From an uncultured Acidobacteriota bacterium (GTDB lineage Bacteria; Acidobacteriota; Vicinamibacteria; Vicinamibacterales; Fen-181), in contig CAWJPZ010000005.1 of assembly GCA_963844875.1 (NCBI GenBank), positions 24,681-88,680 of the forward strand: a stretch of DNA of 64,000 nucleotides, given 5' to 3'. A program made the translations under genes and the position numbers. Under the pieces are notes generated by a model that saw nothing but the letters and a program-made list of their open reading frames with translations, was not told the DNA's origin and searched no databases. This document shows positions 7,452 through 58,646 of the stretch, in pieces (the first letter of the stretch is position 1; each line of letters starts with the position of its first letter).

Positions 7452-8324
7452 CTACTTCAGCAGGCTGATCCCCTGGATGATCGACGCCGCGATGGCCAGC
7501 ACGGTGACGGCCAGGCAGCCGAGCGCGATCACCATGTGATCCGTGCGTTCCGGCTTCATGGGGTCGAGCCAGATCGCGGCGAGATACCCGCCGGCGAACC
7601 CTCCCGCGTGGGCCCAGTTGTCCACGCCCGGCATGAAGATCCCGAAGACGAAGAGCGTCAGCGCCCACGACCACGCCTGGCCCCGCACGAGGCTGCTGCC
7701 GGTGCGGTGTCCGTATCGCACGAGCGCGCCGAGCAGGCCGAAGATCGGCGCCGACGCGCCGATCGTGAACGAGGCGCCGCCCAGGATCGGCACGCCGGGG
7801 AGGACGACCCCGGCGAGCGAACTGAGGAAGAACCCGACGGCCCCGCCGATCGTGTAGATGATGACCAGCCGGCTGGCGCCGAACAACTGGCCGGTGGCGG
7901 GCCCCAGCTGGCGGACCCACATCATGTTGAACAGGATGTGGAGCAAGCCGCCGTGCAGCCAGCCGGCGGTGAAGATCGTCCACCATCGATCGAACATGAA
8001 GACGGGCATCGCGCCGCTGGCGCCGAAGACGAAGAGCGCGCGGGAACTGGGCGACAACAGTGAGAACAGGCCTCCCATGCCGATGTCGCCGCCCGACGCC
8101 AGCAGCGTCAGCACGTACAGCGTGGCGCACGCGCCAATCACGACGGGCGTGAAGCCGAAATCGTTGCCGAGGCGGCGGAGGAGCGGGGCGAACCCGTACA
8201 TGCCCGGGTTCCAGCGGCCGCAGCTGTAGCACCGCTGGTCGTTGACGCCGACGAGGTTGCCGCACGAGGGGCAGACCACCGAGCCCGTTCGCTGCCGGTT
8301 GAACATCCCCCGATCATAGCCCAT
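7452..8324 (-). CDS. Rhomboid family intramembrane serine protease with an N-terminal zinc-ribbon
   Basis: Rhomboid motifs GWLHGGLLHILFNM, GASAPIFGLLGA and HAGGFAGG are present. The N-terminus has CPSCGN...CYSCG. The start could be 8324 (MGYDRG) or 8306. Confidence 0.8.
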   Translation of the reverse strand: MGYDRGMFNRQRTGSVVCPSCGNLVGVNDQRCYSCGRWNPGMYGFAPLLRRLGNDFGFTPVVIGACATLYVLTLLASGGDIGMGGLFSLLSPSSRALFVFGASGAMPVFMFDRWWTIFTAGWLHGGLLHILFNMMWVRQLGPATGQLFGASRLVIIYTIGGAVGFFLSSLAGVVLPGVPILGGASFTIGASAPIFGLLGALVRYGHRTGSSLVRGQAWSWALTLFVFGIFMPGVDNWAHAGGFAGGYLAAIWLDPMKPERTDHMVIALGCLAVTVLAIAASIIQGISLLK

Positions 8325-9556: not shown

Positions 9557-9619
9557 GTGGCTAGTGGCTAGTGGCTGGTGGCTGGACTGCCCACTAGCCA
9601 CTGCCCACCAACCACTACC
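9557..9619. repeat. 7-nt-periodic array GTGGCTA/GTGGCTG x4 facing CACTAGC/CACTGCC-type heptamers
   Basis: GTGGCTA GTGGCTA GTGGCTG GTGGCTG GACTGCC CACTAGC CACTGCC CACCAAC CACTACC. It lies between the convergent stops at 9546 (+) and 9643 (-). Confidence 0.8.
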
Positions 9620-9642
9620 CCTGTCCTGCCAGGCTGTCGACC

Positions 9643-21024: not shown

Positions 21025-21029
21025 AAGAA

Positions 21030-21113
21030 GGCTTCAGGCTCCAGGCTTCAGGCTCTGGGCCGCGTCTGGCCCCGGCTCAGGGCCCAGGGCTCAAGCCTCA
21101 AGCCTCAGGCCTG
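21030..21113. repeat. 7-nt-periodic array (12 heptamers), GGCTTCN family, imperfect inverted arms
   Basis: GGCTTCA GGCTCCA GGCTTCA GGCTCTG GGCCGCG TCTGGCC CCGGCTC AGGGCCC AGGGCTC AAGCCTC AAGCCTC AGGCCTG. It fills the gap between the NuoI-like gene and hycI. Confidence 0.85.
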
Positions 21114-32048: not shown

Positions 32049-32163
32049 GGCTTCGGGCTGCCACCTTCCGGCTTCGGGCCGCGTCAGGCATCGGGCAAAT
32101 GGTTGCGGCGCTGTCGGCCCTGTCTTCCGCCGGCCGGAAGCCGAGAGCCGGAGGCCTGGAGCC
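32049..32163. repeat. 7-nt-periodic array, GGCTTCN family, inverted arms around a ~50-nt centre
   Basis: GGCTTCG GGCTGCC ACCTTCC GGCTTCG GGCCGCG TCAGGCA ... GCCGGAA GCCGAGA GCCGGAG GCCTGGA GCC. It fills the gap between the polyferredoxin stop and the DUF362 start. Confidence 0.8.
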
Positions 32164-33865
32164 TATCGTTTCGGTGCCGGGGGCAGGATGAACTGGTTCG
32201 TCTTCGAGCGCGTTTCGCCGACGCTGGTGACATAGACGGCCGGCCGGTCCTTCACCGGGCAGGCGAACTCGCACGCGCCGCAGCCGATGCAGCGCTTGGC
32301 ATCGACCGCCGGCCGCCGGACCGTCTTCGTCTTCCCGTCCGCGTCCACCACGTCGGCGCTGGCGAGGTACGATGGCCTTCGGCGAGGTCGGGCAGCACTC
32401 CTCGCAGACGATGCAGTCGGTGGCCATCGCCCACGGCAGGCAGCGGCCCTGGTCGTAGAACGCCGTGCCGATCCTGATCGGGTTGCCGCCGGATCGGCGT
32501 GGGGCCGGGATTGCGGACCGGTCGCGGTTGCTCCGCCGGGAGGCTCTGCCAGCTTCTCGCCTCGGTGATCTTCTGGATGGCGCCGGTCGGGCAGACCTGG
32601 CCGCAGAGCACGCAGGTGGGCTCGCAGTAGCCGATGCGCGGCATGAGGATCGGCGTCCAGAGCCCCTCGATGCCGGCTTCGAAGAACGCCGGGTGCAGCG
32701 CGTTGTTCGGGCACACCTTCATGCACTCGCCGCAGCGGATGCAGCGCTCGAGGAAGTGCGGCTCCTCGAGCGCGCCCGGCGGCCGGATCAGGCGCGAGTC
32801 GGTTCCGACGTCGAGCCGGTCGGCGATGCGCAGCAGCGGCACGAGCGCGGCGCCGGCGGCGACGCCGGCGAGCAGCTTGCGGCGCTGCAGCTGCGGCGCT
32901 CGAGCGTGGTCGCGGCCGACGGCAGCGAGCCGAAGCGGAACGCGATGCCGTCCGTGGGGCAGTCGCCCACGCAGTTCAGGCACAGGTGGCACTCGTCCTT
33001 CCGCCACTTCGCCGCCGGGGATCGGGTCGTCGCCGCCCTGGCAGTGCAGCAGGCAGCGGTTGCAGTCGTCGCACGCGGCCTGGTCCTTCTCCAGGCTGGA
33101 CCAGCGACCAGCGCGAGACACGCCGAGCAACGCGCCGAGCGGGCAGAGGGCGCGGCACCAGAACCGCGTGACGCGCAGGTTGAGGGCGAGCAGCCCGATG
33201 AAGATGGCGCCGAGGAAGAACGCCTGCCGGAAGTGCGGCTGCTTGAAGCTGACGAGCGTCGCCCTGCAGCACGAACTGCGCCGCGTCCGCGGCGAAGCGG
33301 ACCGGCTGCCAGGGGCTGTCGTACCACGACGTCGAGCAGCGCGCCCGAGGCGTAGTTCACGCCCGGGAAGATCGACAGCCGCCAGCGAACGGACGCGTCA
33401 GCGAGATCGGGTCGAGCAGCCCGGCGAGCAGCGAGCCGAAGACCGCCGCCAGCAGCACCGCTGCCAGCACGTAGTACTTCACGGCCTGCCACGGCTTGTA
33501 GCGGTTCGAGTCGAGCAGCGCCTTTCCGCGCTTCTTCTCGGACTTGAAGCTCCCGAAGAAGTGGTGCAGCGTGCCGAGCGGGCAGACCCAGCCGCAGAAG
33601 AAGCGGCCGAGGACGAACGTCGGCACCAGGATCGACCAGGCTCCACAGCAGGCCGCGGTAGAGGGTGTGCGTGGAGATGCGCGGTCGCCATCGCGGCCAG
33701 CGGGTCGGCCTCGAGGAAGATCGAGACGGGCCACGGCAGCCGGACCTGTCCGGACGCCCCGCGGAACGAGCCCGTGAACTCGGACCGGAAGAGCAGGAAC
33801 AGGAACGCCGCGAGGAACACGATCTGCGAGACGCGGCGCACGACGGACAGGTGGGGACGCTGCAT
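32163..33865 (-). pseudogene. Membrane polyferredoxin, NapH-like N-terminal half fused to a NapG-like 4x[4Fe-4S] half; at least 9 frameshifts
   Basis: It has TM segments with two CX3CP motifs (FCGWVCPLGTL, WCRALCPLGAL). It also has CDDCNRCLLHC, CHLCLNCVGDCP, an internal RRKLLAGVAAGAALVPLL, then [30 protein letters not shown] and [12 protein letters not shown]. These motifs are spread over several frames. Confidence 0.65.
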
Positions 33866-33868
33866 AGG

Positions 33869-34852
33869 CTACACGGTACCACGCTTGGTCCGGACCTCCT
33901 CGAAGTTCGCCTTGCCGAGGCCGCGGGCCTGGGCGATGCGGAGGAACGGCAGGCGCTGATGGTCGAGGTCCCACCACGCCTTGGCGGCGTAGGATCGAGC
34001 GCGACCGGGTCGGTGCCGGCGAGCAGCGTCTTCTTCACCTCCACGTCGGCCAGGCTGCCTCCCGTCGGCCCGCCGCGCATCAGGACCCGGTAGGCGTCGA
34101 TGATCGTGAGCGTCGGCCGGGCGAAGGCGGTCAGGTCGACCAGGCTCTCGTTGATGCGCTGGTGCAGGCGGCTGCGCTGGCCGCCGATGATCCCGTAGAA
34201 GTTCTTCATGCCGAGCGTGCACGCCGGTCAGGCTGTGGTGCTTGGCGATCGGCAGGTTGATGACCTTGTCGGCGTTCAGAAACGGCTCGAGCACCGGCCA
34301 CGTCGGTCAGCACCTCGCCGCCCAGGTTGACCTGCTTGAACCGGCGCTCGTCGGGCAGGATCACCTCGGCGCCCGCGGCCTTCGCGGCCGCGGCGATCCC
34401 GCTGCGCTCGAAGCACACGCGGGGGTCGTTGCAGCTCATGTCGGTCACGATGACCCGCCTGGCGCCGGCGTCGAGGCACAGGCGGACGACCTCCGCGACG
34501 ACAGCCGGGTTGGTGTTCGCCGCCTGCTCGGGCGCGCGGTCCCAGCCGATGTTCGGCTTGACGACGACGATGTCGCCGCGGGCGATGAAGCGGCGCATGC
34601 CGCCGAGTTCCTCGAGCGCGCGGCGGACCAGGCCTCGGGCGAGCCGCCCTGTGCCACCACCATCTCGGGCAGGCCGGGGTCGGCGGGCACGCCCGTCCGG
34701 CGGCTGGCGACCAGGACTTCCGATTCCTTCGGCCGCTCGCTGCGCCAGCTGAGCCACCCGGCCGCGCCGACAGTGGCAGCGCTCAGGCCTCCGAGCCGCA
34801 GCACGCGCAGCATGAACTCGCGGCGGTCCGCCGCGGGTGTGTCACTCGCCAT
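33869..34852 (-). pseudogene. Tat-signal DUF362 domain protein (second copy); at least 4 frameshifts
   Basis: It has the leader MASDTPAADRREFMLRVLRLGG. The core is IVVVKPNIGWDR...RVIVTDMSCND...INLPIAKHHSLTG...MKNFYGIIGG...TIIDAYRVLMRGGPTGG. The stop lies 3 nt before the polyferredoxin ATG. Confidence 0.65.
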
Positions 34853-35009
34853 CGGTCGGTGCTCCAGGGGCAGAGCCGAACGGGGGTTCCAGGTTCAAGG
34901 CCCAACATTCTACCGGTGTTGCTGTGCCTTTCGCGCGCGATTCAGCCAGGAGCTTCGGCGCGAGGCGTCGCGAGTTCGAGGGGGGCGCAACGGGTGAGCT
35001 AGCCGCCGT

Positions 35010-35096
35010 CAATGCACAATGCATAATGCCCAGCGCAGAATGCACAACGCGCAAAGGCCCTTCCTTCTTGCATTGTGCATTTTGCATTGTGCATTC
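35010..35096. repeat. 7-nt-periodic AT-richer array (NAATGCA family) forming a long hairpin
   Basis: CAATGCA CAATGCA TAATGCC CAGCGCA GAATGCA CAACGCG ... TCTTGCA TTGTGCA TTTTGCA TTGTGCA. The outer arms match at 19 of 20 positions. It lies just downstream of the FKBP gene stop at 35115. Confidence 0.8.
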
Positions 35097-35114
35097 GGTA
35101 TCCGTCGCCCCCCG

Positions 35115-35879
35115 TTACCGGCCTGCTGCCGCGGACGTCGGTACGACGTAGGTGTAGCCGCCGGCCAAGGTCGCGCTCAAACCTTCGGGATTGATCACCA
35201 CGACGTCCACGGCGCCCGCAGTGTGCGCAGGGGTGGTGGCCGTGAGTTTCGTGCTGCTCACCAGCGTCACGTTCGTTGCGGCGGCGCCGCCGATGGTCAC
35301 CGCGAAGCCGCTCGTGAACTCGGTGCCGGTGATGGTGACGGTCGTGCCGCCGCCCGTCGGTCCCGAGGCCGGCTCGATCCCGCTGATCGTCGGGGTCACG
35401 CTGATGCCGACCAGCTCGATGTCGAAGATCAGCGTCGCGTTCGGCGGGATCGACGCGTACCGGTTCGCCCCGTAGGCATCGGACGGCGGAAGGACGAGGC
35501 GGCGCTGCCCGCCGACCTTCATGCCGACTACGCCCTTATCCCACCCCGTGATGACCGACCCGCTCCCGAGCTGGAAGACCAGCGGGGACTTGCCGACGGT
35601 CGTGTCGAACACGAGTCCCTTCTTGTCGGTCTTGTTGATGTCGTAGAACCAGCCGGTGTACCTCACGACCACCACGCTGCCGCTCACGGCCTCGGCGCCG
35701 GTGCCGACGAGCAGGTCGGTCTGACTGTATTCGGGGCTCGACGGCGTCACGGGAGTGTTGTCGCACCCGCCGGCCGCGACAGCCAGGGCGACCACCGATG
35801 CGAGCACGAGGACCGGACGGAACAAACCACTCAGTTTCACGGAACTTCTCCGGGCAAAGGGCAGGCGCCCGATTGTCAC
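35115..35879 (-). CDS. Lipoprotein: FKBP-type peptidyl-prolyl isomerase fused to a C-terminal IPT/TIG domain
   Basis: It has the lipobox LAVAAGGC and the FKBP core VVVVRYTGWF...GSGSVITGWDKGVVGMKVGGQRRLVLPPSDAYG. This is followed by PTISGIEPASGPTGGGTTVTITGTEF..., which is IPT-like. Confidence 0.75.
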   Translation of the reverse strand: MTIGRLPFARRSSVKLSGLFRPVLVLASVVALAVAAGGCDNTPVTPSSPEYSQTDLLVGTGAEAVSGSVVVVRYTGWFYDINKTDKKGLVFDTTVGKSPLVFQLGSGSVITGWDKGVVGMKVGGQRRLVLPPSDAYGANRYASIPPNATLIFDIELVGISVTPTISGIEPASGPTGGGTTVTITGTEFTSGFAVTIGGAAATNVTLVSSTKLTATTPAHTAGAVDVVVINPEGLSATLAGGYTYVVPTSAAAGR

Positions 35880-35883
35880 AGGC

Positions 35884-37026
35884 TCAACGGGTCAGGCGGA
35901 ACCGCACCCCGCCGACGAAGTACAGAAGCGTTTCATCCAGGCTGCCTTCGCCACCGGCCCTGGGTGAGCCTTGCAGCGTGGCCCGTCCCGCCTCCGCGTA
36001 CACGCCCCACTGGCGCTTGACCCAGATGTCGATGCCACCGCCGGCAATCCAGCCCCACCCTCCGGTCTGGAGGTTGAAGACCTGCGTGCCGCCGGGGAAG
36101 ACGACTTCCTCGCCGTTCACCGTCGCGACATACGGGTTGACCGACTCCGTGGTCTGGAAGTTCGAGCGCTGGTAGGTGAAGCCGCCTTCGGCGTAGAGCC
36201 GGACCCGTCCGGTCGGGATGGCGATCTTGCCGCCGACCGTGGCCACGTTGGGCCGAAGGGTGGTCGTGAAACGGTAGCCGCTCCCGCCGCCGGTCGCCTT
36301 CATCTCCAGCGGTTTCAGGTAGCTGCCGGTGACCGCCAGGAAGCGGCCCAGCCAGAAATCGCCGCCCATGCGGAACGTCAAAGCATACGCGTTGGAGGAG
36401 CAGCTGCCGACGCCCTGACCACACGCGACCGCACCGGAGTGCCCGTACTTGCCCGCGCCGAGGCCGCCGAACAGGACCAGCCCGACCGGGAGCGGGAACT
36501 CGGGCCCGCCGCCGGTCTCGGGGCGGGCGTTGGGATCCAGCCAGTTCGCGGGGGCCGGCCCCTGCCGGATCCATACCGCCTGGACCTGCTCGGCGGCATC
36601 GACGACGAGCGTGGTGATGCTGGTGACCGAGAACATGCCGAACAGCTCCCGGCGGGTGCAGCCGGCGGCCGGCGTCGGCGGCTGCCAACCGGCTTCCACC
36701 AGCCAGACGTGCCGGGCCTTCTCGCACACGTCGACGAAGACCCGGACGGACATCTCGGTCTTGCCGCCGCTCTTGGCGTTCCGGGCAGCGAGCATGTCGA
36801 GCGGAAGTTTCGCGACGCCGTCCGCGTCGGACGTCGCGGTCTTCAGCGGGGTGGCGTTCACCCCTACCTCGACCGCCGTGCCCGGCGTCGTCTTCGTCAC
36901 GATTACGGTCTGCGCGGTCGCCGCCGCCGCCCCGATCACGATGAGTGCGGCTGCGAGCATCAGCGGCCGCCAGGATACCGTCATGCGTTCCTCCCCCTGC
37001 GATGGTCTTGGCAGGGAACCCTTCAT
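35884..37026 (-). CDS. Outer-membrane beta-barrel protein with an N-terminal extra domain
   Basis: It has the signal peptide ...LMLAAALIVIGAAAATAQ (the start may be 36984). The C-terminal half has alternating Gly/aromatic beta-strand patterns. The family is not identified. Confidence 0.5.
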   Translation of the reverse strand: MKGSLPRPSQGEERMTVSWRPLMLAAALIVIGAAAATAQTVIVTKTTPGTAVEVGVNATPLKTATSDADGVAKLPLDMLAARNAKSGGKTEMSVRVFVDVCEKARHVWLVEAGWQPPTPAAGCTRRELFGMFSVTSITTLVVDAAEQVQAVWIRQGPAPANWLDPNARPETGGGPEFPLPVGLVLFGGLGAGKYGHSGAVACGQGVGSCSSNAYALTFRMGGDFWLGRFLAVTGSYLKPLEMKATGGGSGYRFTTTLRPNVATVGGKIAIPTGRVRLYAEGGFTYQRSNFQTTESVNPYVATVNGEEVVFPGGTQVFNLQTGGWGWIAGGGIDIWVKRQWGVYAEAGRATLQGSPRAGGEGSLDETLLYFVGGVRFRLTR

Positions 37027-41937: not shown

Positions 41938-41982
41938 GGCTCGAGGCTCAGGGCTCAAGGCGCAAGGCTCAGGGCCAGAGCC
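41938..41982. repeat. 7-nt-periodic array GGCTCGA GGCTCAG GGCTCAA GGCGCAA GGCTCAG GGCCAGA
   Basis: It lies directly after the M28 stop at 41931. The heptamer is the reverse complement of the GAGCCCT array at 42266. Confidence 0.8.
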
Positions 41983-42017: not shown

Positions 42018-42281
42018 ATGGCGTGTTACCGGTACCGGCGTGAAGTGTTGACCGAACTGCTCCGACACGGGGTGCGGCCCACGGACCGCACCCCGCCGTC
42101 TATAGTCAAGTCGTTCGTGAACGACCTGTATCGCTTCGAGATTCGGCGCCTGCGGGACCGGTTGCTGCGCGGCGAGATTCCGAAGCCGTCCTATGCGCAG
42201 CACGTCATCGAGCTCCGGAAGCGCTACCCGATCCTTTCGCTCGACGTGCGCTTCTGGACGGAGGCGAGCCCTGAGCCCTGA
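42018..42281 (+). CDS. Small basic hypothetical protein (87 aa)
   Basis: MACYRYRREVLTELLRHGVRPTDR...; codon usage is high in GC3. The last 5 codons lie inside the GAGCCCT array. I recognise no family. Confidence 0.45.
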   Translation: MACYRYRREVLTELLRHGVRPTDRTPPSIVKSFVNDLYRFEIRRLRDRLLRGEIPKPSYAQHVIELRKRYPILSLDVRFWTEASPEP

Positions 42282-42286
42282 GCCCT
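42266..42286. repeat. (GAGCCCT)x3 heptamer array
   Basis: Three perfect copies span the stop of ORF 42018..42281 and the stop of the convergent tricorn-like gene at 42285. Confidence 0.8.
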
Positions 42287-45200
42287 ATTTCTCGTACCTC
42301 CAGCTCTTCTCCTTCAGCATCTTCATCGCCTCGTCCACGGCGGCCTTCAGTTCGCGGTCGAATCCCTTCAGTTCGTCCTCGGGCGAGTTCTTGACGAAGA
42401 CGTCGGGCGCGACGCCGTAGTTCTCGAGGTTCACGCCGTAGTTGTTCGGCTTCGAGGGGTCCCACGTCACCACCAGCGATCCGGGCGTCCGGATGCTGCC
42501 GCCGTTGATCAGGCCGTACGACCCGGTGGCGATGACCGAGGCGTTGGTCGGGTTGCCCACGATGCGGCCGAGGCCGAGGTCGCGGAAGCCCATGGGGGTC
42601 ACTTCGCTGTCGGATGCGGAGCGCCAGTTGATCAACATCACCTTCGGCCCGACCACCATCGACCGCGGCCGCCGGCCCCACGTGCGCGCGCCCCAGCGGT
42701 TGTTCCAGAACTCGTACGGGCGGCGTTCGAGGATGTCGAGGAGTTCCTGGTCGATGTTGCCGCCGCCGTTGTAGCGGATGTCGACGACCAGCCCCTTCTT
42801 GTTCCAGAATTGGTCGATCTCGTTCTGGAACTTCTTGAGCGACGGCTGGTTCATCGACTGGATGTGCACGTACGCGATCTGGCCGTTGGTGTCCTTGTCC
42901 ACGAACTCGCGGTTCCGTTCCACCCATTCCCCGTACTTCACCTCGGAGAGCGACGCGACCGTCTTGATGCGGACGTCGCGGGCGTCGGTGCCCGCGGCGG
43001 TGCGCGAGATCCTGAACGTCACGTACTCGTTGAGCGGGTCGTTCAGCAGCCGCCAGTAGTTGTCGCCGGCCTTCACCGCTTTCCCGTCGATCGCGAGGAC
43101 GTAGTCGCCGACCTTGATGTCCAGCCACTCCTTGTCGGCCGGGCCCTTCCGGTAGATCCGGCTGATCCTGTAGAGGCCGCCATCGGGCACGAGGTCGAGT
43201 CCCGGCAGGCGCGTCGTGTAGGCGGGCGGGATCTCGCGGCTCGCCGGGCCGCTCACCCCGGTGTGCGACGCGTTGAGCTCGCCAATCATCTCGTTGGCGA
43301 TGTCGTAGACGTCGTCGTTCTCGCCCACGTACTTCAGCAGCGGCTCGTAGGTGGCCTTGACCGCGCCCCAGTCGCGGCCGTGCATCTTCTCGTCGTAGAA
43401 CTGGTAATTCATCACGCGCCAGCACTCGTCGAAGATCTGCTGCCACTCGACGCGGTTGTCCACCTTCACGGTCATCGCGGTGTTGATCTTCGTCTTCTTC
43501 TTCTCGCCCGACAGCTCCATCTGGTAGAGCTCGCCGTCCTGCGTGTAGAAGACCTTCTTCGTGTCGGCCGTCGCCGTCAGCCCTGCAAATGCGCCGTCGG
43601 CCACCCGCTTGCGGTCCTTGCCGTCGGTGCCGACCGAGAAGAGGCCCCGGCCCTTCTCGTCGCTGCTCACGAAGTAGACGAGCCGGCCGTCGGCCGAGAT
43701 GAAGTAGGGGCCGTCCGCCTCGGTGCCCTTCGTCAGCTGGATGGCGCGGCGGTCGATGCCGCCGGCATCGACCTGGATGCCGGCTGGGGCCGGTGCAGGC
43801 GCGGCGTCCTTGCCCTTCTGTTCGGCGCGCGCCTTCCTGGCGCGCTCCTTCACCAGCGGGTCGTCCGGGTCCTCGCGGAGGCGCTCGAGCGACACGATGA
43901 ACAGGTGCATCACGCCGCCGTCGCGCTCCGAGAGGAAGACCAGCTTCCGGCCGTCCGGCGTGAAAGCGGCGCGCCCCTCGGAGAACGGGTTCGGCGTGAC
44001 GTCGTATTCCTTCTTGCCCGCGATGTCGTAGAGATAGACGTCGGCGTTCTGGTCGTCGTCGCGCCGCGTGTAAGCCAGCCACTTGCCGTCCGGCGAGAAG
44101 TTGACCGACTGGAACCCGCCGGCCGGGTTGGCGCGCAGTTCCACGCTGCTGCCGCTGTCGATGTCGGCGGTGAAGAGGCGGTTCGCCGCGACGTACGCAA
44201 GCTGCTTCGAATCAGCCGACCAGCCGCCGAGGTTCTTGAAGGAGGCGTGCGTGGTCAGTTTCCGGCGCGTGCCCGCCTGGCGGTCGAACACCCAGACTTC
44301 CTCTTCCCTGGATTCGTCGGAGGTGTAGGCGACGTAGCGGCCGTTCGGCGAGAAGCTCTCGCGGCGATCGCGCCACGAGGAGGAGGTCACCAGCTGGCGC
44401 TCGCCGAATTCGGGGTCCGTGGGAACGACCAGGATCTCACCGTGAAAGTCGACGGCGGCATAATCGCCGTCGGGCGACGGCGAGAAGCCGTCGATGCGGC
44501 CCTTGGACTGGACGAACTGCACCAGGTTCTCCTTCGGATCGTAATCGAGATCGATCGCCACCTTCCGGGGCGACCCGCCGGGAACGGCGAGCGTCCAGAG
44601 TTCGAACTCGTTCTCGTAGGAGATCGTCTTGCCGTCCGGGCTGATCGACGGGAACTGGACCCCGTCCTGCTTGTGGAAGGTCACCTGCGTCGGCTGCCCG
44701 CCGGTCGGTGCGATCTTCCAGATGTTGAAGATCCCGTCCTTCTCGGAGGAGAAGTAGACCATCCCGTCGGCGCCCCACATCGGGTGAAGGCTCTGCCGCT
44801 TCTCGCGGAACGCCTGCAGGTCGGTTCCTGTCAGCTGGGTGATGGCCTTCGTCTTCAGGTCCTGGACGAAGATGTCGTCCGCCGCGTTGCCCTTGTAGCC
44901 CTTGCGCCAGTAGCGCACCGGGATGCGATTGAAGGCGAGCGCCGATCCGTCCTGCTTGATCATGCCGTTGCTGCCCACGTCGACGGGCAGCGGTTCGGGC
45001 AGGCCCCCTTCGAGTGCGACGCTGTAGAGCGGGCTCCCGAACGGCTGGCCGCTCCGGTTGCTGGCGAAGATGATCCGCTTGCCGTCCGGCGTCCAGTAGA
45101 GGACGGTGTCGGCCGTCGTCAGGAAGGTCAACTGGCGGGCCTCGCCCCCGGCCGCCGGAATGACCCACACGTCGTCGTTGCCCATGCGGTTGCTCGTGAA

Positions 45201-58583: not shown

Positions 58584-58646
58584 CTGAATGTTGAATGCGG
58601 AATGTAGAATGCCGAATGCAAGAACGCCGAGTGCAGGACGCGTAGC
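58584..58646. repeat. 7-nt-periodic array (NNGAATG)x5 followed by degenerate heptamers
   Basis: CTGAATG TTGAATG CGGAATG TAGAATG CCGAATG CAAGAAC GCCGAGT GCAGGAC GCGTAGC. It fills the entire HK-RR intergenic gap and contains TAGAAT at 58605-58610. Confidence 0.85.

Follow-up and report, generated by a model that had tools for sequence, protein, structure and literature searches.

A heptamer-built hairpin downstream of an FKBP-TIG gene in a Vicinamibacterales contig and its relation to a family of RAATGCA palindromes near gene ends

Bacterial heptanucleotide repeats have been known since STRR (short tandemly repeated repetitive) sequences were described in cyanobacteria, initially in Calothrix PCC 7601, and they were later found to be over-represented in many genomes, a general heptanucleotide excess having been reported in 2007 (as cited in PMC4692102). 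Heptameric intergenic repeats have been described in Xanthomonas (unit GGGAATC) and Nostoc (unit GGGGAYT; Rehm et al., 2015, PMC4692102), including inverted heptamer arrays with stem-loop potential in Xanthomonas, and direct repeats of the heptamer TAACTGA have been reported from marine Beggiatoaceae, cyanobacteria and Bacteroidetes (MacGregor, 2015, PMC4679880). The idea that heptamer arrays arise by slippage has been published as well (PMC4692102, PMC4679880). REP/BIME elements are GTAG- and CGTC-tagged palindromes of 20-40 bp with stems of 5-13 bp, for which roles in mRNA stabilization and termination have been proposed (Di Nocera et al., 2013, PMC3733652). Heptameric intergenic repeats and REP-like palindromes are thus already known; new here is a family of hairpins built from RAATGCA units. 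The searchable literature yielded no account of RAATGCA arrays and none of heptamer repeats in Acidobacteria.

The element studied here lies at positions 35010-35096 of the window, that is, of the whole 64,000-nt stretch of Vicinamibacterales DNA that was analysed, and is 85-87 nt long. The first-pass annotation had described it as an AT-rich hairpin made of heptamers, with outer arms complementary at 19 of 20 positions. Six NAATGCA-like heptamers (CAATGCA, CAATGCA, TAATGCC, CAGCGCA, GAATGCA and CAACGCG) form the left array at 35010-35051, which, read on the minus strand, is the 3′ arm of the sense RNA and was delimited from the sequence, TRF and the inverted-repeat search; its middle and last units are degenerate. 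Four well-kept inverted TGCATTN units (TTGCATT, GTGCATT, TTGCATT and GTGCATT, followed by a C) form the right array at 35068-35096, which is the 5′ arm of the minus-strand sense RNA (AAUGCAC, AAUGCAA, AAUGCAC, AAUGCAA). Between the two lies the 16-nt palindrome centre CAAAGGCCCTTCCTTC (35052-35067, minus strand), where a small inner stem AAGG/CCTT is present in the predicted folds. TRF showed period 7 for 35010-35047 (5.4 copies, 67% matches) and for 35069-35095 (3.9 copies, 90% matches), the latter reaching 100% when read as period 14. The variable unit position of this copy is C, A or T, and the copy is partly degenerate.

The inverted-repeat search showed complementarity at 13 of 13 nt between 35011-35023 and 35069-35081, at 18 of 20 between 35010-35029 and 35070-35089, and at 23 of 27 between 35011-35037 and 35069-35095. 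The units were found where they had been described and the inverted arrays fold, so that the heptamer-built hairpin stands; the arms are indeed complementary, but 19 of 20 was slightly generous and the arm coordinates given for it were loose. The AT-richness was also borne out, with 47% GC in the element and 69% in the window. Minus-strand (sense) RNA of 34995-35115 had a predicted folding energy of -51.8 kcal/mol (z = -3.99) and plus-strand RNA one of -42.0 kcal/mol (z = -3.63), and none of 200 shuffles was as stable in either case. When the fold was extended to 34960-35130, the minus strand reached -78.6 kcal/mol (z = -3.4), and an outer GC clamp enclosed the heptamer hairpin. The distal half of this clamp lies at 34980-34987 (GGGGGGCG on the plus strand, CGCCCCCC in the minus-strand sense RNA) and its proximal half, GGGGGGCG in the minus-strand sense RNA, at 35106-35113, 1 nt past the stop codon of the preceding gene.

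All neighbouring genes are on the minus strand, in the order MatE, a 380-aa OMP-like protein, FKBP_C plus TIG, the element, DUF362 and polyferredoxin. The gene with Pfam domains FKBP_C and IPT/TIG (35115-35879, minus strand; stop TAA at 35115-35117) is the last of the MatE, OMP-like and FKBP run; a 241-aa database protein (P0001), 100% identical over 95% of the query, suggests that its true start is near 35840. The hairpin starts 19 nt past this stop codon. The hairpin is followed, after about 95 nt, by GTAGAAT (34907-34913, minus strand), a putative -10 box for DUF362, whose ATG at 34850-34852 comes another 55 nt further on. This heptamer occurred six times in the window (8437, 13473, 34907 on the minus strand, 45569, 53481 and 58604) compared to 0.88 expected, each time upstream of a gene and on the right strand, and it is therefore probably a -10 box of the source organism. 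Four of the six boxes directly abut heptamer arrays, and the same 12-mer, TGTAGAATGCCG, stands at both 45568 and 58603. The placement of the element between the FKBP-IPT/TIG stop codon and the promoter region of the DUF362 and polyferredoxin genes agreed with the first-pass annotation, and the position of the promoter is kept in relatives, where GTAGAAT corresponds to TACCATA boxes in the alignment and the SD sequence and ATG are matched too.

The DUF362 and polyferredoxin genes themselves (32163-34852, minus strand) are each spread over three frames, with at least seven frameshifts in 2.7 kb, and their segments are 47-93% identical (most >60%) to intact orthologues. The nearby genes for tricorn protease, FKBP-TIG and two M28 peptidases are intact. 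The frameshifts point either to local pseudogenization or to a local assembly problem. The best named homologues of the tricorn protease of the window were from Vicinamibacterales (74, 69 and 66% identity).

A consensus promoter and terminator scan of 34000-36000 gave nothing at the element and no terminator elsewhere in that range, and the sequence past the stem is GC-rich without a U-tract (GACGGCGGC on the sense strand, CGGTATCCG on the antisense strand). Hairpin-plus-U-tract terminators gave 12 weak matches in positions 1-60000 of the window compared to 23.6 expected, mostly inside genes; other gene-end signals are therefore needed in a window without canonical terminators. This absence, the position of the element directly past a stop codon and the -10-like box of the next gene downstream of the hairpin would all fit a bidirectional intrinsic terminator. 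According to this explanation, an inner stem folds, the U-rich repeats of the 3′ arm (UGCAUUYUGCAUU) serve as an imperfect U-tract ending the FKBP operon, and the A-rich arm does the same for antisense transcription. The A-rich 5′ arm and U-rich 3′ arm are found on both strands in 36 of 36 hairpins among the matches listed for the family described below, and mycobacterial RNA polymerase tolerates imperfect U-tracts, with NusG aiding (PMC3993855). Against this, the scan was empty at the element, the sequence past the full stem is GC-rich, and hairpins without U-tracts do not terminate in vitro with the RNA polymerase of that other high-GC lineage (PMC3993855). Besides, in co-directional cases of the family, the next start codon was found only 3-53 nt past the hairpin, also in a phage late operon; this leaves no room for a promoter, so that efficient termination would silence the downstream genes. 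Read-through is thus required, and full termination excluded, for most family members, and since most hairpins fill stop-to-start spacers and none of the family hairpins has a U-tract after its stem, they are not full canonical terminators. We regard a full bidirectional terminator as a less likely explanation, and an improbable one for this element. Bridging of stop and start codons for translational coupling was considered and rejected; it fits some copies (in L117, 3 nt to the ATG) and not the window copy, at a distance of 158 nt.

The FKBP-TIG to DUF362 spacers of relatives were shown to be 47 nt, 98 nt, 143 nt (L205) and 208 nt (L081/L082) long. No heptamers were found in those orthologous spacers that were read as sequence, four orthologous contigs being compared by spacer length only, and the hairpin region had no counterpart in the alignment with relatives that keep the same promoter. 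In L205, the same position directly past the stop codon is occupied by a GC-rich hairpin of the ordinary kind (GGGAGCGCC..GGCGCTCC). Because four orthologous spacers are without it, the element appears to be lineage-specific and dispensable, and the spacer comparison identifies it as a seemingly recent addition to a site at which hairpins are usual after the gene end.

A scan for 7-nt periodicity was run on the window. Autocorrelation compared with Markov simulations showed 12 arrays at lag 7 against 0.7 expected; the other lags from 4 to 13 were at background, and lag 14 (2 x 7) was raised. The arrays, 11 of 12 intergenic, are built from the units GCCCAGA, GTGGCTA, AGGCTTC, CGGCTTC, AGGGCGG, GGCTCAA, GAGCCCT, CCGCAAG, GCAGGCC and GAATGCN. 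Their density in the window was 14 per 100 kb; in 1.2 Mb of DNA from unrelated genomes it was 1.2 per 100 kb, this control being made up of 80 loci found with the FKBP-TIG protein, all from distant taxa. The earlier claim of at least two sequence families under one 7-nt rule thus holds for the rule, whereas two is an underestimate, with at least eight unit types present. The AATGC core shared with the array near 58584 was likewise recovered: allowing up to two mismatches, AATGCANAATGCA occurred 10 times in the window compared to 0.75 expected (0 of 100 shuffles reached 10), with 7 of the 10 matches inside the 35010-35096 element and 3 at 58594-58620. That array (58585-58636, plus strand) is single and non-inverted (TGAATGT, TGAATGC, GGAATGT, AGAATGC, CGAATGC, etc.), with AAUGC in the sense RNA; it starts about 5 nt past the stop codon of a histidine-kinase gene and contains the -10-like box TGTAGAATGCCG 40 nt before the ATG of a response regulator.

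In L206, a close relative whose tricorn protease is 85% identical to that of the window, an array of 18 units and 130 nt (7877-8006) abuts the ATG of an AMP-binding gene, and its units drift through AATCCAG, AATTCAG, AAGATAG, AAGACAG, AATGCAG, AAGCCAG and AAGCCGC, one unit being AATGCAG. Since these units are linked by single-base steps, heptamer families grade into one another. At the tricorn stop codon, the window carries TAG(GGCTCAG)x3, L207 carries TAG(GCAGTAG)x6 plus the inverse, and L206 carries nothing.

GGCTCAR x5 was seen at 41938-41975, past the stop codon of an M28 peptidase gene, and its inverse, GAGCCCT x3, at 42266-42286, where it covers the stop codons of both a small ORF (42018-42281) and tricorn (stop at 42285-42287), which are convergent. 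Because of this overlap, arrays can intrude into 3′ coding ends. The two arrays were considered as the ends of a MITE, and this was rejected; the 290 nt between them encode the small ORF, which is conserved in L206 as an 80-aa gene at the same relative position. Two further heptamer hairpins of the window, at 9557-9620, (GTGGCTA)4 against TAGCCAC-like units, and at 21029-21112, (AGGCTTC)4 against CAAGCCT units, are GC-richer; one lies between convergent genes, and the other fills the 4Fe-4S/hycI spacer up to the start codon. In A/T polarity, both are the reverse of the AATGCA family.

A search of metagenome and viral contigs with the pattern AATGCANAATGCANAATGCA gave at least 120 metagenome and at least 120 viral loci, together more than 240; among the metagenome matches listed, 47 of 120 loci had a GC content of at least 0.57. 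Related copies thus exist elsewhere as hundreds of arrays and 36 hairpins in other contigs, among the matches listed, the hairpins being defined as clusters with both arms within 150 nt (23 metagenome and 13 viral). These 36 two-arm clusters come from about 27 contigs, and in every one of them the AATGCA arm precedes the TGCATT arm. The family hairpins have 13-54 predicted pairs and energies of -15 to -72 kcal/mol, element lengths of 29-184 nt (most 55-155 nt) and arms 3 nt to roughly 90 nt apart, and their GC content is 0.28-0.52 compared to 0.49-0.68 for the carrier contigs. These contigs are from soil and of moderate to high GC, and contigs other than the window carry 2-4 hairpins per 5-15 kb. 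The window copy matches the 36 other hairpins in architecture, arm order, AT-richness and gene-end position. After removal of the AATGCA arrays, high-GC carrier loci still contained 18 further lag-7 arrays per 100 kb, which shows that the general 7-nt rule travels with the family. Neither the window nor any of 10 carrier loci matched an Rfam family at gathering score, and at E < 1 there were only chance-level matches.

Carriers of the palindrome family include the Vicinamibacterales window, L155 and one phage. L155, with two hairpins, is most likely from Thermoanaerobaculia, another acidobacterial class; its best named hits were at 82% to Thermoanaerobaculia and at 81% to Candidatus Binatia, with further Thermoanaerobaculia hits at 63% or less. 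L281 is the structural operon of a tailed phage (portal, major head, adaptor, neck and major tail in PHROGs) with four hairpins between its genes, the loops of three being closely similar. Within L117 and within L155, which have two copies each, the loop-proximal sequence is common to both copies and the flanks are not; since copies on one contig share loops and not flanks, the family behaves as a dispersed repeat.

Of 37 hairpins (the window copy and the 36 among the matches listed), 15 were placed by targeted stop and start tests in a stop-hairpin-start arrangement and 5 between convergent genes; 9 were next to a gene end on just one side, and none lay between divergent starts. A gene end therefore faces 29 of the 37. 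The stop codon was often fused with the first unit (tgaAATGCAG). Single arrays past a stop codon had AAUGCA in the sense orientation in 29 cases and the opposite in 4 (p = 1e-5), a count in which about half of the single arrays are left unclassified by the stop and start tests; the median gap from stop codon to array was 7 nt. The window array at 58585 follows the same rule of AAUGCA sense past a stop codon. Sense-strand RNA was predicted to be stabler than antisense in 18 cases and less so in 8 (Wilcoxon p = 0.027, with crude ORF calls), and for the window copy the values were -42.6 and -36.4 kcal/mol. This signal is modest but significant, and the excess stability of the sense strand fits G-U pairs, which are tolerated in RNA only.

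We hold with moderate confidence that the element is a copy of this intergenic palindrome family, (RAATGCA)n-loop-(TGCATTY)n, and acts as a REP-like transcribed stem-loop at gene ends or between cistrons that grows by 7-nt slippage. It would probably shape the ends or the stability of messenger RNA. It is argued to act once transcribed because family members sit at gene ends, are biased in orientation relative to transcription and are kept in a phage operon, and because the sense RNA shows a modest excess of stability. The element would form the untranslated 3′ end of the MatE, OMP-like and FKBP-TIG transcript, and this end would fold into a stem-loop of some 30 bp held by the GC clamp. In the manner of REP/BIME elements or of intercistronic hairpins in phages, this stem-loop would mark a transcript boundary, by pausing or partial termination of RNA polymerase, by blocking 3′-to-5′ exonucleases or as a site for a double-strand RNase, and the expression of the upstream genes would be kept apart from that of DUF362, which has its own -10 box. 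Replication slippage in steps of 7 nt would give rise to the arrays and alter their length, and it is proposed as the reason for a constant period despite drifting unit sequences. This origin is supported only indirectly, by the drift within arrays and by exact 7-nt differences in length. Among about 45 orthologous array pairs, the only length differences were of exactly 7 nt (in L209/L224/L311); all of these pairs are from loci other than that of the window element. Hypervariability was considered and not seen; most orthologous arrays were of the same length, including short arrays between near-identical contigs.

A neutral or selfish by-product is a serious alternative, and a possible one. 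According to this explanation, the arrays are slippage-prone junk or a dispersed selfish repeat that accumulates wherever intergenic DNA allows it, the hairpin does nothing for the cell, and their position and arm order follow from insertion or seeding bias and common descent. The element is missing in relatives and its window copy is degenerate (67% matches in the left array), two observations that also count against our preferred reading, as do the missing U-tract, the read-through that most family members require, the unchanged length of most short arrays between near-identical contigs, the frameshifts in the downstream genes and the opposite A/T polarity of the hairpins at 9557-9620 and 21029-21112. 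Arrays of many unrelated units are present in every intergenic context of the window, including two in divergent promoter regions (8395 and 45545), heptameric repeats are over-represented in bacteria generally and polymerase slippage has been invoked for them (PMC4692102, PMC4679880), and the fusion of stop codon and first unit looks as if arrays expand up to the coding constraint. A by-product would, however, hardly be expected to show a sense bias of 29 to 4 past stop codons, to be missing between divergent genes among the matches listed, to fold better on the sense than on the antisense strand, or to be kept in four copies by a compact phage structural operon. The uniform arm order (36 to 0 among the matches listed) also speaks against it, less strongly if all copies come from one element, and such common descent of a dispersed element could explain the order without any function.

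The strict 7-nt period despite sequence drift could also be explained by a platform on DNA or RNA that binds one protein monomer per 7-nt unit and regulates the DUF362 promoter or mediates its own spread. Candidate binders would be a cold-shock-type OB-fold protein (for RNA or single-stranded DNA), a nucleoid or regulatory protein (for double-stranded DNA) or an HUH/RAYT-like transposase (for the hairpin). Binding of CspB to heptamer repeats, one protein per unit, has been reported (reviewed in PMC4679880). The sharing of loops and not flanks by copies on one contig is as in dispersed elements, one contig mixes arrays with GTAG-tagged REP-like palindromes, and the abutment of arrays on four of the six GTAGAAT boxes of the window is also in line with a platform. 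No candidate protein was found, however, and arms that are from 3 nt to roughly 90 nt apart fit poorly with a fixed dimeric site. Neither target-site duplications nor conserved GTAG or CGTC tags flank the family, and the hairpin, about 95 nt upstream of the -10 box, is far for a simple operator and is absent in relatives that keep the same promoter. A protein-binding platform is thus among the less likely explanations, and we consider it very doubtful.

Compared to described repeat classes, the element agrees with a heptanucleotide simple-sequence repeat (LSSR) in having at least three tandem 7-nt units (the TRF copies above; direct-repeat families D1 and D2) and in the excess specific to period 7. 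Its likeness to the Xanthomonas and Nostoc repeats comprises tandem 7-nt units that are almost only intergenic and near start or stop codons, length and sequence that vary between close relatives, and some inverted pairs that form stem-loops (PMC4692102). Unlike those repeats, the NAATGCA unit is not G-rich and so has no G-quadruplex potential, the host belongs to the Acidobacteriota, and the inverted form of RAATGCA is common, has one arm order and is also found in at least one phage. The arrays share with STRR that several heptamer units coexist in one genome as tandem non-coding arrays; their host is from Vicinamibacterales and not cyanobacterial, and STRR are not known to be defined by a palindrome or a gene-end position. 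The TAACTGA repeats are also intergenic heptamer direct repeats, oriented relative to the neighbouring gene, missing from the shorter spacers of close relatives and present as mixed heptamer arrays side by side; they are mostly directly upstream of start codons with one inverted set in 169, whereas the RAATGCA family is downstream of stop codons and often palindromic (PMC4679880). The family also differs from canonical bidirectional terminators, with which it shares an A-rich 5′ side, a stem-loop and a U-rich 3′ side directly past stop codons: it has no separate U-tract of 7-9 nt, its stems are far longer and AT-richer, and most copies need read-through. The unit sequences of the STRR family are presumably different from NAATGCA.

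Like REP/BIME elements, the family consists of dispersed extragenic palindromes downstream of coding regions, between unidirectional or convergent genes, which are probably transcribed, have G-U pairs in their stems and are variably present between relatives (PMC3733652). The location agrees with that of REPs, a gene end facing most of the hairpins and none lying between divergent genes. The size does not, given 85-87 nt for the window element and the lengths and pair numbers of the family reported above, and neither do the tags. CGTC is present at 35007-35010, next to the window copy, and GACGG on both sides of it, the latter not seen at other hairpins; the 36 other hairpins are flanked by tga, cga, cag, etc., without a common GTAG or CGTC tag. 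Inspection of the 25-nt flanks of the 37 hairpins showed no consistent direct repeats as expected for a MITE. By analogy, the element may work like a REP, but it is not one, since its stems are too long and built from repeats and no tag is conserved.

Taken alone, the locus at 35010-35096 is ordinary; its moderate interest comes from the regularities at the level of the family. The fixed arm order, the placement past stop codons in one orientation and the presence in a phage structural operon turn a vague heptamer phenomenon into testable predictions. The locus also bears on transcript ends in Acidobacteriota, an abundant soil phylum for which no termination data were found in the searchable literature. 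A further-reaching idea, which we think unlikely, is that Acidobacteriota and their phages use heptamer-built, polarity-fixed hairpins as a gene-boundary signal class of their own that replaces the canonical terminator and that RNA polymerase, or a protein with a footprint of seven nucleotides, reads in steps of 7 nt; if true, it would explain the kept period with a drifting unit and give bacterial heptamer repeats a function. For annotation, the arrays explain variable spacer lengths between close relatives and can overlap stop codons, as at 42266-42286.

The contig represented by L248, L303 and L283 (IMG/VR 3300029305_011774 and 3300018430_000723), classified as 'viral', is extremely repeat-rich, with 12 sense (AATGCAR)3-6 arrays in 14 kb, each heading one of two conserved modules of 90-180 nt. 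No Rfam match was found here, and the modules are interleaved with GTAGGGGCGGC..GCCGCCCCTAC palindromes that resemble GTAG-type REPs; for showing an association with REPs, a regular expression for GTAG-tagged GC palindromes is too unspecific in high-GC DNA, and L248/L303 alone stood out in it. L209, L224, L311 and other low-GC matches, including giant-virus MAGs, were found to contain long pure (AATGCAA)7-8 arrays, which are probably ordinary microsatellites unrelated to the acidobacterial hairpins.
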